Positions 1,532 through 14,423 of a DNA stretch of 19,547 bases are shown one piece after another (position 1 is the stretch's first letter; the number at the start of each line of letters is the position of its first letter). Source of the DNA: a virus (taxonomy: Duplodnaviria > Heunggongvirae > Uroviricota > Caudoviricetes); IMG/VR virus record IMGVR_UViG_2574180220_000004; one strand, written 5' to 3'. Under the pieces are notes generated by a model. That model was given only the letters and a program-made list of their open reading frames with translations. It searched no databases and was not told where the DNA came from. The position numbers were made by a program, and so were the translations under genes.

Positions 1532-1741
1532 TTAATTTGAATACAATGCAATTCTCGAGGACTGAAGTTTCTCGCAATTAAAATTTATCAGTTTTACTTT
1601 CTGCTCTCTGGAAACGCCTGCTTCTTTTTTACCTGAGAGCATTTTTTCGCATTCTGATTTCGTTAGTTTAGATTTTGAATATCTTGTCCAGTTAGTAGGA
1701 GTGCCACCTTCCTTTTCAATAGTGGCGGTAATTTTATACAT
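1532..1741 (-). CDS. ydaC: Small Rac-prophage protein, YdaC-like (69 aa)
   Basis: ORF 1532..1813 trimmed to the ATG at 1741..1739 (MYKITATIEKEGG...). Its 5' end overlaps the 3' end of ralR by 8 nt. Confidence 0.7.
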   Translation of the reverse strand: MYKITATIEKEGGTPTNWTRYSKSKLTKSECEKMLSGKKEAGVSREQKVKLINFNCEKLQSSRIALYSN

Positions 1742-2794: not shown

Positions 2795-5387
2795 TTGCAT
2801 ATTCCTTAGCCCAGCGGGGCAGTGATAATGTCTTAATAGCTGGCCATTCATCGGTATTCAGGCAGTCAGACAGGGTTCGCAGATTGCGGTGATATTCCTG
2901 TTGACCTGTCAGTTTTGCTTCTTCGCCCATCATGAAAATTTCAACCGGATAACGTCCGCATTCAATAGTTGTGCTGGCAACCAGAAAAACGAAAGTTGGC
3001 TGCACTCCAAACTGTGCTTCATAACCGTCACTGTAGAATGCATCCTGAACGTGATAGCGGTAGTCGTAATAAGCGGTTTTGAATCGTTGAATATCCGCCG
3101 TAGTTTTCACGTCCATGATCCAGTGAAATTCAGGGATAATTTTGTCCGGACGGCACCGACACAAAATTCCTGTTTCAGGATCTTCCCAGTAAATTGATGA
3201 TTCAGCGTGTCCGGCGCTTTCAACAAGCCATTGCCCCAGCGGCAAAGCCATAACGCTTTGATACATGAGTTCAATTTTCCGGCCTTCTTCCGCAGTGATA
3301 ACCGTTTTTCCTGTGCTTGCGCATTCCATCAGAAACGCCTTCTCTTCTTCTTTTCCGGCGTTTGTACGGCGGTTAAATTCAGGTGCTACGATAAAGCGGT
3401 TACTGAATTCCTCCGGTTCAAGTACCCGGCAGTGGAAAGCGGTTCCTAAATCGAGCGTTTTTGTCTTTGTGGTGTCCACGGGGGCATTTTTACGCCACAA
3501 ATATAGTGCCGGAGTATCAGCAATGTCATCGAGCTGAGACTTACTGACACCGGGACCCGCATGGTAATTCTCATTCGAAATTCCGTAATAAATACCTGGC
3601 TCTATGTCTTCTACGATTACGGGATCTGCGACTTCGCCAGTTTCATCACTGCAATCGCGATGCGGATCGCTGCCAGCATTCTCATTGTGCGGATGTTCAG
3701 CGCCTTCCATTTCCTCCGGATCATTTTCCTTAGCTTCAACCTGACTCTCTTCATCGAATGTTTCCTGGTATGTTGCGTCGCCCATCACCGCACCACAGTC
3801 AGGGCAGTTACCCCCGCCAGTCTGGCCGCAGGCATTGCAGGCTATTTCCGGTTCCTGTTGCACTACTGGCTCAGGTTGATTCATATCCGGGCTGGTTTTT
3901 TCCGTTTCTGGCTGGTTCTGGTACACACAATCGCGAGTCTGGATCCCATTTACCCATTTCGGATCGTTCGGGTCGCTAATTCCGTCAACAAATTCACCAC
4001 GTGATGCAGCAAGCAATTTATCGGCATCGACAGGATTTTTTGATGGAATGTTTTTCCGGGCTTCATGGAGTTCTGCCCGCAGTTCCTGATATTTCGCATC
4101 AACAGAATTTACCTGTGACTGAGCATCCAGCGGCTGCGTGTCCTGATGATGTTCAGTTGCGTCCGGTTCCATTGTTTCAGCCTCTCCCTGTTCAACTGCC
4201 GTTGTTCCAGATGGTTGCGGTTTTTCTTCATCATCCTGTTTTCCTTCTTCTGTTACTCGCTGCGGCATCGGGGCAGAGGAGCGACCGCAGGCAATATCCA
4301 CGATTTCCGGATCAGGGTTGGCATGATCGGTTTCAGTCAGTACTTTGTTCAGATATTCAGTGACGTGCGCGGGGATGACCTCGATCCCAATTGGTGCTTC
4401 TTTTACGGACGCAACCACGATGGCGCGGGAATAATCCAGCCCGCCAGGCATGGTGATGAATTTGTCGCGGAAAACAGAAAAGGGCGGTTTATTTTCAGCG
4501 ATAATTTCCTCAATGCGTTTAGCGTGTGCCGGATGAAGGTTATAGATGTCCAGATCCATTGAACGGGCCAGTACGCCAGTGGCTACGTCGCGCGCCAGTG
4601 ACGTCAGATCGTGTACGAAACCTTCGCCGCGATCGGTGAGGTTTCCGCCGCCAGCATTAGCACCGGAAGCCGTGCGAGTGATGTGTGAAACACGATTACC
4701 CTTCATCCACTCTTTTGTCAGCAGTCCTCGATCGGTGTAGTCAGCGTTCAGGTATGCTTCGAAAAAAGCAGTTATCAGTCCCAGGTTTGAATTACCAGGA
4801 TTAGGGAAAACTTTGTCAGTGTCACGAACCAGTTTGTGGAGTTCGCGAATTTCCAGCGGGTCGAGCAGGCTGGTTTTGTGGGAAACAGCCAGGGCAGTAA
4901 CAGCCGGTAGTTCTTCAGCCCGAGCAATGTGTAATGCCTGGAGTCCGTCGCGTGAAACGTGCGTTACCGGTTTTTCGCTGCCGTGTTGAGCAAGCCAACG
5001 AATGGGCAGTTCCTGGCCAGAAATTGGGAGTAGCATATTCTCCTCAATCTCAGTCATGTCTTCGCCGTTGACGTTGGTATTGCCTTGATAGTGAGCGTTG
5101 TCTGGTGCTGCTCCCGGTTTTAGTTCCCATGTCATGGAGTCTTTGCTGAGTTGATAGCGTTCACTCCAGGTAAAATCGATCTCACCTTCAGCGGGCAGGT
5201 CATTAACGACAGGAAAATTCGTGGCAACAGCTTTAAAATAGCTGCTCAGTTTTTTACCTGACTTAACGATCAGGTAGTCCAGAGTGGCACAGGTCGATTC
5301 AAAATCGTTGCTTGCCCACAGGACGACGTCAGGTTCACCGGATGATTTTTTCGCTTTCCGTAACAGGAAGAGTGGTTTTGTGCTCAT
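2787..5387 (-). CDS. recE: RecE exonuclease VIII, 866 aa
   Basis: 866-aa ORF with ATG at 5387..5385; acidic low-complexity central region and C-terminal nuclease domain as recalled for RecE; coupled to recT. Confidence 0.93.
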
Positions 5388-9150: not shown

Positions 9151-9654
9151 ATGACTGAATTAACCAAAAAGCAATTAATCGAAGAAGCTAAATTAAAAAT
9201 AGCGATTGAGAAATGCCACCCCAATTCAGGGATGGCACGGGTAGAGGGCGAATTATTCAAAATTGCTCTGGCATCGCTGGAAGCAGAGCCAGTTGGTGAT
9301 TTTTATGAATACAAACCGGATGACTGGTATCAGCGTTCGGCTGGAGATAAAGCGCCAAAATGGACGCCACCCTATGCCGTTTTTCCAGCGCCCGTAGTGC
9401 CGGAAGAAATGGATTTGCTTACATGCCATCTCGATGGTGTAACTGAAACATATGCTGAGGGATGGAACGCTTGCCGCGCTGCCCTGCTTCAGGGCAAAGG
9501 GGAGCCCGGGAAACAAGTTCGCGAATTGACAATGCTGGTTAAACAATTGGTTAGTCAACTGAAGAAAGCGAAACCGGGCTGCAAATTGCCGGATAAAGTG
9601 ATGGACTACCTGGAGCGAAGCGGACTTATAAGCGTGGAGGATGTTTTACGATGA
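9151..9654 (+). CDS. Hypothetical phage protein, 167 aa
   Basis: Clean ORF with ATG at 9151; a GCCC-GAAA-GGGC tetraloop hairpin sits in its 5' leader (~9127-9138). No recognised domain. Confidence 0.6.
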   Translation: MTELTKKQLIEEAKLKIAIEKCHPNSGMARVEGELFKIALASLEAEPVGDFYEYKPDDWYQRSAGDKAPKWTPPYAVFPAPVVPEEMDLLTCHLDGVTETYAEGWNACRAALLQGKGEPGKQVRELTMLVKQLVSQLKKAKPGCKLPDKVMDYLERSGLISVEDVLR

Positions 9655-9734
9655 CCTGGCCTGAAGCATTCACAACGGTAGGAATTGCGATGGCGGTGGC
9701 GCTGGTGGTGTATTCGATTTGCCGCTGGGGTTGA
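9651..9734 (+). CDS. Candidate 27-codon hydrophobic micro-protein (MTWPEAFTTVGIAMAVALVVYSICRWG)
   Basis: ATG overlaps the upstream stop in an ATGA arrangement (9651-9654); single predicted transmembrane-like segment; followed by a hairpin. Below the ORF-track size cut-off. Confidence 0.3.
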   Translation: MTWPEAFTTVGIAMAVALVVYSICRWG

Positions 9735-9747
9735 TAATACTAAATAA

Positions 9748-9766
9748 CCAGCCCTTATGGGGCTGG
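9748..9766. terminator. Hairpin between convergent genes (stem CCAGCCC/GGGCTGG, loop TTATG)
   Basis: Inverted repeat read directly; sits between the end of the plus-strand operon (9734) and the stop of the minus-strand KilA-N gene (9775). Flanking sequence is more U-rich for the minus-strand transcript. Confidence 0.45.
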
Positions 9767-9774
9767 CTAATCAT

Positions 9775-10548
9775 TTAGAACTGTTCATTGCCATCGAGGT
9801 TAGGTAGCATAATTTTTTCAATCAAGGCGAGAGCCTTTTTGTCCCGGTCAGCGAAGTATTTCGGGGCATATTGCGGCAACCAAATATTGTTAAAATGTTC
9901 TTTGAAATCTGCTAAATATTCATTTGGGTACAGCCTTGCAGGGTATACGCGACCATCGGGATATTCATGGTCATAGGTAGGGAATGTTTTGGGTTCTACG
10001 TTTCTATTATCTCTTAACCATTGTGAAAATACTCTTCCTTGTGAAATGTCAGGAACCATTTTTTCTGGGAGTGTGTACCCTGCTTGTTCAAGAGGTGCAA
10101 CCAAGTTGAATGTCAGTTCATTAAGAATAGAAAAGTGCGTGTGAGGAATTCTACTACGATTAACCATGTACCGTTTTAAATGTACAGGCATTTCTGCTGT
10201 AGTTCTTTCCCCTGACATCCATTCACGAACCCATCTTGAAACCTGGACTGCAAATTTGGGCGATAGCCACTGCGCTAGATTAATAGCGATGTCAGGATGC
10301 ACCCATGTCCCTTGGTTTTCAGGTCTTCCACCTTTAAATGATTGAATTAACTCCGATATGGGAATTCCCATATCGCGTGATAATTCGTCAAAAAACTCTT
10401 GAGTAGTTTTGAGTCTAGTGTAATCAGAGAGCAGTTTGCCCGCAGTTCTACACATTGATGTGGCGTTTATGTAACCATCTTTGGCACGTAAATGTATTAT
10501 TTCGCCGTCAATTTCACGAGAAATCAAAGATAATTGAAAGGATGTCAT
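9775..10548 (-). CDS. KilA-N domain protein, 257 aa, with uncharacterised C-terminal half
   Basis: N-terminal ~100 aa carry the KilA-N/APSES-type signature (DGYINATSMCRTAGKLLSDYTRLKTTQEFF...WVHPDIAINLAQW). ATG 10548..10546 with GAGGAA 7 nt upstream. Convergent with the replication operon. Confidence 0.8.
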   Translation of the reverse strand: MTSFQLSLISREIDGEIIHLRAKDGYINATSMCRTAGKLLSDYTRLKTTQEFFDELSRDMGIPISELIQSFKGGRPENQGTWVHPDIAINLAQWLSPKFAVQVSRWVREWMSGERTTAEMPVHLKRYMVNRSRIPHTHFSILNELTFNLVAPLEQAGYTLPEKMVPDISQGRVFSQWLRDNRNVEPKTFPTYDHEYPDGRVYPARLYPNEYLADFKEHFNNIWLPQYAPKYFADRDKKALALIEKIMLPNLDGNEQF

Positions 10549-11070
10549 TGAAAATTCCTCAAGTTGGAGAGTTCTGGAACATTAAGGCGAGGTGGCAGTA
10601 ATGCACCATCTGTAATCTTTTGATACTGACGTAATCGGGCCTGATGTGCAACGCCTTGCAAGTATGTAACTCATTGAAAACGATCATTTTTATCTATTGA
10701 CATCAAATGGCAAACTGTCATTGTGCGGCTATGGCAAGTGGCAAATGCTTATAAATCATATGGATATAAATGGTACAGAAAGAGTTGTTTTCTCTAGGAT
10801 ATGAGTATACGCCCAATGCTGATTGGTTGAATTTTGTTCTTGTTTTAAAGGGTAAGAGTTTAAAGTGTTGGCAGTGATGTATTGGATAGTTAGAATTGCT
10901 GTGGGTGCTTGAGGCTATCTGCCTCGGGCATGAACACCAAAGGTAGATAGAGAAAAGCCCCAGTTAACATTACGCGTCCTGCAAGACGTTTAACATTAAT
11001 CTGAGGCCATATCTATGCGACACATAGAGATTAGCCTCTTACGGACCGAAAGGTCAAGGAGAAGCAGGCT

Positions 11071-11196
11071 ATGAAGCAGCAAAAGGCGATGTTAATCGCC
11101 CTGATCGTCATCTGTTTAACCGTCATAGTGACGGCACTGGTAACGAGGAAAGACCTCTGCGAGGTACGAATCCGAACTGGCAGACGGAGGCTCTGA
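11071..11196 (+). CDS. Hok/Gef-family type I toxin homologue, 41 codons, apparently C-terminally truncated
   Basis: MKQQKAMLIALIVICLTVIVTALVTRKDLCEVRIRTG matches the conserved Hok/Gef N-terminus and transmembrane segment; AAGGAG SD 9 nt upstream. ORF stops after TGRRRL; the family-conserved GQTE is encoded in the +1 frame. Confidence 0.6.
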   Translation: MKQQKAMLIALIVICLTVIVTALVTRKDLCEVRIRTGRRRL

Positions 11197-11278
11197 TTCG
11201 TAGACTACTAATCTGAGTAAAAGACCCAGCGGGGAAAGAACCACGCCGGGACTAGTTAATAAGATATTTATAGCGTGG

Positions 11279-11644
11279 CTATTCTTTTTTTGCGGTATAG
11301 ACTTTTTCGCCTGAGAAGTCTGGAGCTACCCAAAAGTTAATATTAAACTGAGCATCATCGCTTAGTTCAACACGGTGCCAGTATTGTGGTGGGCTTGTTG
11401 CAAAAGCGCCAGCATTAATGACTACTTTTATCTCCGGTTCAGTAGCATTCTCATCAGCAAAACCATAATATGTTACAGTACCTTCCATCACGCATAACTG
11501 TCCAAAAACACCTGCTGCTGTATTATGATGTGTTAATAACGCTGAAGGTACGTTCTCTTTTGTGAAGAACGGAGTTGAGCGTTTGATTACCCAGTCTTTA
11601 GGAATTCTCTTGTGTGTCATAACCACCCCCCATAAAACATGCAT
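11279..11644 (-). CDS. Small cupin-like protein (possibly DUF1971-type), 113-121 aa
   Basis: ORF with two candidate starts (ATG 11644 or ATG 11620, both with SD-like sequence). Family assignment is from memory and uncertain. Confidence 0.6.
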   Translation of the reverse strand: MHVLWGVVMTHKRIPKDWVIKRSTPFFTKENVPSALLTHHNTAAGVFGQLCVMEGTVTYYGFADENATEPEIKVVINAGAFATSPPQYWHRVELSDDAQFNINFWVAPDFSGEKVYTAKKE

Positions 11645-11987
11645 TATAAATGCACCTTTTTGAGGGTTATGTCAAGCTGTTATGAAACACATAATTGATA
11701 TGTTGATTAGAGGAGAAGATAGAATCAATATGGTTGTTTTTCGTATAACTATTTGTTTTACTTTTAGTTTGTGCATTCTGTGTGTTAGGAATAACTTATT
11801 AAAGTTTAACTAAAAAATCTCGATATAGTCCGCATAGATTACTGTTACTGAATCTTATTGTGTGCATTAGTTGTGTTCTGAAATTTCAATTTAATTACTT
11901 ATGATATATTTTTAACGATAAATGTTTTCCGGGTGAAAGACAGTGGGGGATGAGATAAGCAATATATCATTAATCTTGATTATTTCC

Positions 11988-12049
11988 AGGATGCCTTTAC
12001 TGTGCATATAAATAAATCATATACGCATCAAATAATGTAAAGGCATCCT
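11988..12049. repeat. 13-bp perfect inverted repeat (AGGATGCCTTTAC / GTAAAGGCATCCT) with 36-nt AT-rich spacer
   Basis: Arms at 11988-12000 and 12037-12049 read directly; followed by TTTT on the plus strand. Lies inside the AT-rich ORF-free spacer. Confidence 0.55.
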
Positions 12050-12487
12050 TTTAGATATATCTTATCAAATGTTAATGATTTGAGTGGGAAACATGATTCC
12101 AGAAACTAATCATGCGGCTACTTTATAAAAATAATGCCCATATAAAACAGCCAGCGAAAAGGATTACGGATAAAAAAGGAGCGAGATGTGCATAGTTGTT
12201 ATTTTCCATGTTTAACCACCTTAAATAATTGATGATGACGGGATGTGCATCTGTAATGCTTTTGTTGAAATGTTATGATAAAAAAGAACTTTTTCATAAC
12301 ATTAAAATGTAATTTATCTAATCGTTTTTAATAATAAGTGTTGTATTTCTATCCTTGTATCAGCTATTTGATATGTAGTGTTTGTTCATGTTATGTGGAG
12401 CTTTACACCATAGCCAGTTTATTTATACTTTATTCGTCAGCCTGAACAACTGGCATCTGCTGCACTGCGCCATCGAGAGATTGAGAA

Positions 12488-14268: not shown

Positions 14269-14344
<76 letters not shown>

Positions 14345-14347
14345 TAT

Positions 14348-14423
<76 letters not shown>

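Follow-up and report, generated by a model that had tools for sequence, protein, structure and literature searches.

A probable mosaic cargo slot in a Rac-like Escherichia coli prophage, with a BstA-like gene that carries a covarying palindrome

The subject of this work is the region 9775-11644 of a virus-derived DNA stretch of 19,547 nucleotides (nt) (IMG/VR record IMGVR_UViG_2574180220_000004; the whole stretch is called the window below), which is, by its sequence, a Rac-like lambdoid prophage of Escherichia coli. This region most probably represents a mosaic cargo slot, filled with a gene of the BstA abortive-infection family, a damaged hok/sok cassette and a gene for a DUF1971 cupin protein. 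These three gene families have already been described, and the novelty lies in a covarying palindrome found within the KilA-N gene, together with stand-alone copies of it. The three open reading frames (ORFs) are as follows:

9775-10548, minus strand: KilA-N/BstA_C ORF (bstA-like gene), 257 amino acids (aa), with an N-terminal KilA-N and a C-terminal BstA_C domain
11071-11196, plus strand: hok ORF, truncated allele, 41 aa (HOK_GEF E 3.2e-16 on residues 6-39)
11279-11644, minus strand: DUF1971 ORF, open frame of 121 aa, within which the gene for the YeaR/TehB-N-terminal-like cupin most likely takes up 11279-11620 (113 aa)

The original prediction, made from the letters of the sequence, described three genes in opposed orientations (KilA-N, hok-like and cupin-like), and both the strands and these identities proved correct. 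It also proposed a candidate uncharacterised module, which is not supported, as all three genes come from described families and DUF1971 has a very similar solved structure (PDB 3DL3).

According to profile and domain searches, the 257-aa protein is a member of a distant clade of the BstA abortive-infection family. Its C-terminal ~150 aa, previously left without assignment, were identified as a BstA_C domain. The elements of the gene and its surroundings are listed below:

10213-10509, minus strand: KilA-N (APSES-type) DNA-binding domain, residues 14-112 (Pfam E 4e-27)
9796-10194, minus strand: BstA_C domain, residues ~119-251 (PADLOC, PHROG, Pfam PF26567)
9745-9769, minus strand: terminator-like hairpin of 10 pairs (6 G-C) with a loop of 5 and the T-rich tail TTTAGTATTA
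10686-10713, minus strand: weak promoter-like site upstream of the gene (9/12 match), of putative function

In the PHROGs database, phrog_6287 (“BstA abortive infection system, replication inhibitor”) matches the protein over its full length (E 2.7e-89), and the PADLOC BstA model recognizes residues 119-238 (E 3.2e-21). A BLASTP comparison with BstA of BTP1 revealed 32% identity over 142 aa (E 3e-16), limited to the C-terminal domain, while hhalign, applied to a profile of 41 homologues, aligned it with the same BstA colinearly over residues 45-235 (probability 98%). Moreover, the Pfam pair PF04383 and PF26567 (BstA_C) is precomputed for a 100%-identical database protein (P0001) and for all homologues listed. 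The protein therefore resembles the BstA proteins of BTP1, E. coli NCTC10963 and Klebsiella pneumoniae 52.145 in being prophage-borne, of similar size, and composed of two domains, KilA-N-type and BstA_C, although it is shorter than these (257 versus 298-310 aa).

BstA is produced in lysogens, colocalizes with replicating phage DNA, blocks its replication and aborts the infection (Owen et al. 2021, PMC8585504), and the usual, frequent but not universal, place of bstA is just downstream of the prophage repressor gene (PMC8585504). Close relatives of the 257-aa protein share this location: a homologue with 86% identity in phage PhiR5_2 is encoded directly downstream of a cI/LexA-type repressor gene, between the repressor and N, and an allele of E. 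coli G6/7 (77% nucleotide identity) likewise lies between a cI/LexA-type repressor gene and N. If the protein of the window works like BstA of BTP1, E. coli and Klebsiella, the lysogen would produce it, and an infecting phage would be met during its replication: the KilA-N/APSES domain would engage the phage DNA and BstA_C would stop this DNA from being replicated, so that the infected cell would die without releasing progeny. The prophage itself would be spared by a cognate DNA element situated within the bstA-like gene or close to it.

Several observations weigh against this assignment. The PADLOC score of 74 bits, obtained with the C-terminal domain only, is one fifth of that of canonical BstAs (350-412 bits). 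The N-terminal domain is a canonical KilA-N and not of the divergent BstA type, and it matches PHROG 129, “transcriptional regulator” (E 9e-25); KilA-N proteins include regulators and antirepressors. All experimentally studied BstAs fall outside the clade of the 257-aa protein. The gene, equipped with its own terminator, is not adjacent to the repressor gene but lies ~4 kb from it, between the replication and nin genes and on the opposite strand. A structural comparison of BstA_C yielded no solved relative, and the fold brought no functional clue. Finally, canonical bstA is accompanied by aba, a 63-bp DNA element spanning the bstA start, which is BstA-specific, spares the prophage, and in BTP1 has terminal direct repeats (PMC8585504). 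Around the start codon of the bstA-like gene no flanking direct repeats of this kind were found, and its 5' region is not conserved with PhiR5_2. It should be stressed that aba elements are homologue-specific, and thus the missing similarity at the 5' end proves nothing. Our literature search found no mechanistic follow-up of BstA.

The same points might be accounted for if the KilA-N/BstA_C protein were a phage regulator, i.e., an antirepressor or transcription factor acting in the development of its own prophage and not in defence. KilA-N is the DNA-binding domain of such regulators and of P1 KilA, the characterized BstAs are outside this clade, and the palindrome presented below also occurs in KilA-N genes with unrelated C-termini, where it may serve as an autoregulatory operator. 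We regard this explanation as unlikely, because BstAs with a proven role in defence have the same two-domain architecture and a homologous C-terminal domain, close relatives are encoded in the cI-N slot, a typical place for defence genes expressed by lysogens, and the gene forms a stand-alone, oppositely oriented unit of promoter, gene and terminator resembling a moron. Furthermore, satellites and prophages carry its distant homologues as cargo, and in one case an Abi_C gene lies two genes from the homologue.

The moron-like anatomy became apparent in comparison with RSHH22 and 933W, in which a small hydrophobic ORF leads straight into hok. Relative to them, the window contains an additional 1.16 kb (9731-10890), comprising the hairpin, the gene and its upstream region, and this segment is, as far as its layout can tell, a classic moron unit. 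The hairpin, already recognized in the original prediction, is located directly 3' of the KilA-N gene and separates it from the convergent ORFs of the early operon. The claim that each gene possesses its own signals was borne out by a 10/12 promoter before the hok mRNA, and for the KilA-N gene by the weak 9/12 site alone. Three (A/G)TGGCAA repeats, at 10704-10745 (155-195 bp upstream of the start of the bstA-like gene), overlap the sole promoter-like site on that strand, and this repeat cluster could be an operator.

In Limnobaculum, Paraburkholderia and Rhizobium, distant homologues belong to the cargo of prophages and P4-like satellites. In Limnobaculum (locus L012: 6926-7921), the KilA-N/BstA_C gene is followed by a gene for a P63C-domain protein inside a P4-like satellite (AlpA, primase), and in Paraburkholderia (L013) an Abi_C gene is placed two genes upstream of the homologue. 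The whole KilA-N plus BstA_C clade comprises 2,652 database clusters (E<=1e-3). Its members from Verrucomicrobiota, Bacteroidota, Planctomycetota, Myxococcota, Nitrospirota and Armatimonadota share 52-60% identity with the E. coli protein, and the same level was noted for genomes of candidate phyla (Gracilibacteria, Peribacteria) (loci L016-L095, genome contigs). Such identity across phyla is unusually high for mobile defence cargo, which suggests a wide horizontal spread. Since the PADLOC BstA model covers less than half of the length of these proteins, the clade may escape defence-system surveys and may be under-counted in them.

Within the KilA-N coding sequence, one element was found which first drew attention as a BLAST self-match and which is present in the window in a single copy:

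10354-10375, either strand: perfect 22-bp palindrome CGATATGGGAATTCCCATATCG, at codons 58-65 (RDMGIPIS) of the KilA-N domain

The corresponding codons were extracted from 80 homologous genes of species-representative genomes belonging to many phyla. In 55 sequences with Ile at position 5 of the nine-residue peptide (followed by Pro, Ser or Asn), on average 10.05 of the 12 symmetric positions were complementary, versus 3.6 of 12 (approximately the chance level) in the remaining 30 sequences, mostly with the motif Q-T-G-L-P-E. Over 20 different palindromic arm sequences were recognized, e.g., CCGAAACGGGAATTCCCGTTTCGG (ETGIPVS), CCGATATCGGAATTCCGATATCGG (DIGIPIS), CCGATGCCGGAATTCCGGCATCGG (DAGIPAS), GGTCTATGGGAATTCCCATAGACC (SMGIPID), CCGTTATGGGAATTCCCATAACGG (VMGIPIT) and TCGATATCGGTATACCGATATCGG. 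As the arms are many and different, and each of them is palindromic, the paired changes that preserve the symmetry also alter the amino acids encoded. The covariation score, calculated for an alignment of 83 sequences including the non-palindromic clade, was 0.300, versus 0.148±0.012 in shuffles (none of 500 reached the observed value), and it dropped to 0.08-0.11 when the pairing register was shifted. For the palindromic clade (~50 homologues), the peptides were also held fixed and the codons redrawn from the usage of each gene, which gave 416.6±8.0 complementary pairs (maximum 448 in 5,000 draws) versus 553 observed.

The most central pair, composed of the synonymous third bases of the Gly and Ile codons, is complementary in 35 of 50 genes, versus 12.2±3.0 expected (maximum 24 in 20,000), and mismatches of the G·T and A·C types occur in equal measure (25 and 24). 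Both features argue for a twofold-symmetric site in double-stranded DNA and not for an RNA hairpin. The palindrome was found neither in canonical bstA genes nor in the Q-T-G-L-P clade of the family; in this respect, the bstA-like gene differs from canonical bstA, having a covarying palindrome at codons 58-65 instead of aba-like direct repeats at the 5' end. In the literature searched, no paper presents this palindrome sequence in a phage context, and as far as we searched, it has not been described.

Viral contigs were scanned for CGANNNGGGAATTCCCNNNTCG, which revealed at least 120 loci. Their locations, and the agreement of the unspecified triplets with the symmetry (expected by chance in 1 of 64), were:

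at least 17 loci: same position inside KilA-N ORFs, triplets complementary in 16
at least 68 loci: non-coding exact copy of the E. coli 22-mer next to hok, triplets complementary in 68
at least 35 loci: elsewhere, triplets complementary in 21

Among the matches listed, 11 of 17 KilA-N ORFs with the palindrome have a BstA_C domain detectable by tblastn, and the others that were checked have T5orf172/MUG113 or unassigned C-termini, which indicates that the site accompanies the KilA-N domain rather than BstA_C. The copies adjoining hok are placed with great regularity, as 66 of 68 of them (again among the matches listed) are found exactly 35 nt ahead of the hok cassette start, i.e., ~12 nt upstream of the -35 element. 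This junction of the stand-alone palindrome and hok occurs at 1,477 places in 674 complete E. coli genomes (~12%; here and below, genome counts denote presence among 5,426 complete E. coli genomes), notably in O157:H7 and other Shiga toxin-producing E. coli (STEC). The stand-alone copies are located in the slot that the KilA-N gene takes in the window, that is, after DUF1627-DUF977-DUF551 and a small membrane ORF and before hokD/nin genes. With the gene they share the palindrome alone, their flanks being unrelated. One viral contig (L096) carries both a stand-alone palindrome (10622-10647) and a KilA-N homologue (4645-4989; 90% identity to the N-domain of the window), 5.6 kb apart; thus, the gene and the stand-alone site can coexist on one element.

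The KilA-N domain is the only factor common to all gene-embedded copies, and the simplest reading is that the palindrome is the binding site of this domain. We know of no binding site established for any phage KilA-N protein. The domain of the 257-aa protein is of the APSES/KilA-N type known from yeast Mbp1 and from PCG2 (Iyer et al. 2002). In addition, the aba concept predicts a DNA site embedded in the gene of a BstA-type protein, which makes the palindrome a candidate self-immunity element as well as a candidate KilA-N binding site. A more specific version, tentative and in our opinion rather improbable, is that the site is recognized by the KilA-N domain of its own gene product and acts as an aba-type “self” element silencing the defence on the replicating DNA of the prophage, with stand-alone copies as decoys or targets. 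If so, stand-alone 22-mers would let other lambdoid prophages escape this defence, or be sensed by it, and, since the arms encode residues 59-60 and 64-65 of the domain, the site and the protein would be forced to co-vary.

Two other origins of the symmetry, taken together, are conceivable but doubtful, namely a hairpin formed in RNA or single-stranded DNA, or a recombination hot spot of which the stand-alone copies are scars. The 10-bp stem could indeed form in mRNA, but the synonymous central pair, which would fall in the loop of such a hairpin, is complementary far above expectation, and the equal numbers of G·T and A·C mismatches reveal no wobble tolerance of one strand. As for recombination, the stand-alone copies mark precisely the point where two modules meet, with the small ORF on one side, the hok cassette on the other and unrelated sequence in both flanks, an arrangement expected from two breakpoints if the palindrome is recombinogenic. 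Lambdoid phages also encode RusA and other junction resolvases, which were seen in neighbouring nin regions. The symmetry kept across phyla by compensatory changes, at the cost of amino acid changes, speaks against a simple scar or hot spot and points to selection on the site. The palindrome could also be an autoregulatory operator.

The distribution of the three genes among the E. coli genomes shows that they are largely independent units. The presence of particular elements was as follows:

KilA-N gene, any allele: 147 genomes
KilA-N gene, at least 95% identity: 117 genomes
KilA-N-hok junction: 117 genomes
DUF1971: 457 genomes
hok cassettes: about 4,700-4,800 genomes
whole 3-kb arrangement: 100 genomes

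All three genes occur together in ~100 genomes, and other arrangements exist. The same KilA-N allele is found with an intact hok and no DUF1971, the allele with 77% nucleotide identity located behind cI is accompanied by neither hok nor DUF1971, and the adjacency of KilA-N and hok is limited to near-identical copies and is seen neither with the divergent allele nor in other genera. The original prediction had treated the three genes as one unit and had itself named their independent distribution as the outcome that would speak against it, and the E. coli genomes largely show such a distribution.

One cooperative module, for instance a toxin with two accessory proteins, is therefore very improbable. 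Its appeal lies in the contiguity of the genes, bounded by the hairpin and the AT-rich spacer, and in the fact that the KilA-N allele of at least 95% identity adjoins hok in 117 of the 117 genomes having it. These 117 copies are, however, at least 98.7% identical and amount to one recent module, not to independent evidence. Neither the 77%-identical allele nor the distant homologues have hok or DUF1971 nearby, DUF1971 with the spacer occurs alone in ~350 genomes, the same KilA-N protein is encoded beside an intact hok without DUF1971, and hok is damaged in precisely the arrangement that contains all three genes. A mosaic slot, preferred here, is compatible with these distributions.

The hok/sok cassette of the window contains the following elements:

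10868-10896, plus strand: hok mRNA promoter TTGGCA-17-TAGAAT, 10/12 sigma-70-like, positioned as in hokW and other hok loci (alignment)
10903-11073, plus strand: hok mRNA leader with the Sok target, Rfam RF01794 (sok) over the full model length
10953-11021, minus strand: putative Sok antisense RNA, by coordinate transfer from the annotated sokW of phage 933W
11057-11030, minus strand: promoter-like TTGACC-16-GCTAAT, read from the sequence and putatively assigned to Sok
11015-11074, plus strand: mok-like leader ORF of 19 codons, the TGA stop of which overlaps the hok ATG (ATGA)

The match to RF01794 reached 101.5 bits (gathering score 59; E 2e-22), and the 5' end of the hok mRNA is at 10903. 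The first 36 codons of hok are identical to those of hokW/hokD-type alleles, and the promoter, leader, Sok target and these 36 codons share 90-97% identity with hokW-mokW-sokW of 933W and hokD (relF). The position between replication and nin genes is likewise the usual one of hok/sok in lambdoid prophages. Damage is evident further on: a 1-nt deletion after codon 36 changes the ending ...RTGQTEVAVF... of the 51-aa protein into ...RTG-RRRL* (41 aa), with further indels beyond, and the 41-aa peptide scores 34.8 bits with the NCBIfam Hok model, under the 73-bit cut-off. The mok-like ORF differs by a 2-nt deletion from that of 933W and of strain “numer 3”. Recognizable homology to hok cassettes stops between ~11190 and 11235, and thus the 3' segment pairing with the 5' end of the mRNA is absent; no complement corresponding to the 3' fold-back (fbi) element (...GCACCCGC... 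downstream of hok in intact loci) was found before the DUF1971 gene. Unlike intact hok/sok, the cassette therefore encodes a 41-aa Hok with an RRRL tail and a 19-codon mok, and lacks the fbi segment and the native terminator.

The same KilA-N-hok module is found in strains “numer 3” and D217-5 (96-97% identity), where hokD is intact and has 51 codons, and both of these examined examples of intact hok are without DUF1971. About 103 genomes match at >=99% over the truncated-hok/DUF1971 stretch, which equals the number carrying the >=99% DUF1971 allele. The truncated hok allele appears to be tied to the junction with the DUF1971 block, and the joining of this block would be the event by which hok/sok was damaged. 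The cassette is probably attenuated or dead, as judged from its nucleotide sequence, and it resembles the decayed chromosomal hok loci known in E. coli K-12. As regards activity of the 41-aa Hok, the literature is divided, and the toxicity of Hok is placed either in the periplasmic tail or in the membrane helix (PMC8509063). Thus, of the defence and toxin cargo anticipated for this region, a BstA-family gene and hok are present, but the toxin part is damaged by the frameshift.

The search with the cupin-like protein, proposed together with the original prediction, identified it as DUF1971, with a PF09313 match over 80 of 80 profile positions (E 3.5e-26). It could be aligned with PDB 3DL3 over 112 residues (E 4e-59) and with YeaR (3BB6; E 6e-25). 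The start codon is most likely at 11620, which is both the RefSeq call and the start of the 3DL3 alignment, so that the earlier length of 121 aa, corresponding to the frame open up to 11644, should be reduced to 113 aa. In its full-length PF09313 domain the protein is like YeaR, the chain of 3DL3 (“tellurite resistance protein B”) and the N-terminal domain of TehB. It differs from these in being prophage-borne, with an AT-rich upstream region of 840 bp, and the methyltransferase domain of TehB was not found in it (only positions 11-106 of the 289-position TehB model were matched, with 48 bits and a 303-bit cut-off).

The AT-rich character of this upstream region was confirmed:

11645-12487, no strand: AT-rich spacer, 29-33% G+C (45-53% in the flanks)

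DUF1971, the spacer and DUF1367 form one block, present at ~91-95% identity in NCTC9112 and ~350 other genomes without KilA-N/hok. Within the spacer, no Rfam match was obtained even at E<=1 and no credible ORF was found; a 43-aa ORF at 11682-11813 had no PHROG match. The inverted repeats of the spacer are short; one of them, at 11988-12049, is a perfect repeat of 13 bp (AGGATGCCTTTAC / GTAAAGGCATCCT) enclosing a loop of 36 nt. The spacer also contains a 56-bp segment (~11911-11966) that is missing from the otherwise ~95%-identical spacer of NCTC9112.

Considering the wider context, the 3-kb segment 9600-12600 is 99.9% identical to the phage records vB_EcoS-666R9, -673R7 and -613R10 (induced or predicted phages), and likewise to a Rac-like prophage of E. 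coli strain 50579417. Upstream of the three genes the order is recET, kilR, sieB, repressor/cro, ydaT, replication genes, DUF1627, DUF977 and a 167-aa ORF, and downstream of them are located DUF1367, YbcO/DUF1364, a gene for a Q-like DUF1133 protein, two tRNA genes and lysis genes. The left boundary of the variable slot is marked by one further ORF:

9652-9735, plus strand: unannotated hydrophobic ORF of 27 codons (MTWPEAFTTVGIAMAVALVVYSICRWG), the ATG of which overlaps the stop of the 167-aa ORF (ATGA)

It is ~91% conserved in prophages with and without the KilA-N gene, and in O157 prophages a different 34-aa membrane ORF takes its place. The tRNA genes (14269-14341 and 14348-14419, plus strand) lie 3' of the Q-like antiterminator gene, as is common in Stx-type/lambdoid prophages; a related prophage has tRNA-Thr and tRNA-Gly at the corresponding position. 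At 1557-1735 (plus strand) the full-length RalA small RNA was identified (Rfam RF02694, 225 bits), the antitoxin of the type I system RalR/RalA of Rac, which means that the window contains a second type I toxin-antitoxin system besides hok/sok.

As an accessory island, the region is ordinary: one more BstA-type defence gene of a prophage, a decayed hok/sok cassette and a cupin moron. The palindrome, in turn, is a concrete candidate both for self/non-self recognition by BstA and for the DNA target of a phage KilA-N domain, and its presence as stand-alone copies in prophages of STEC hints that prophages may interact.

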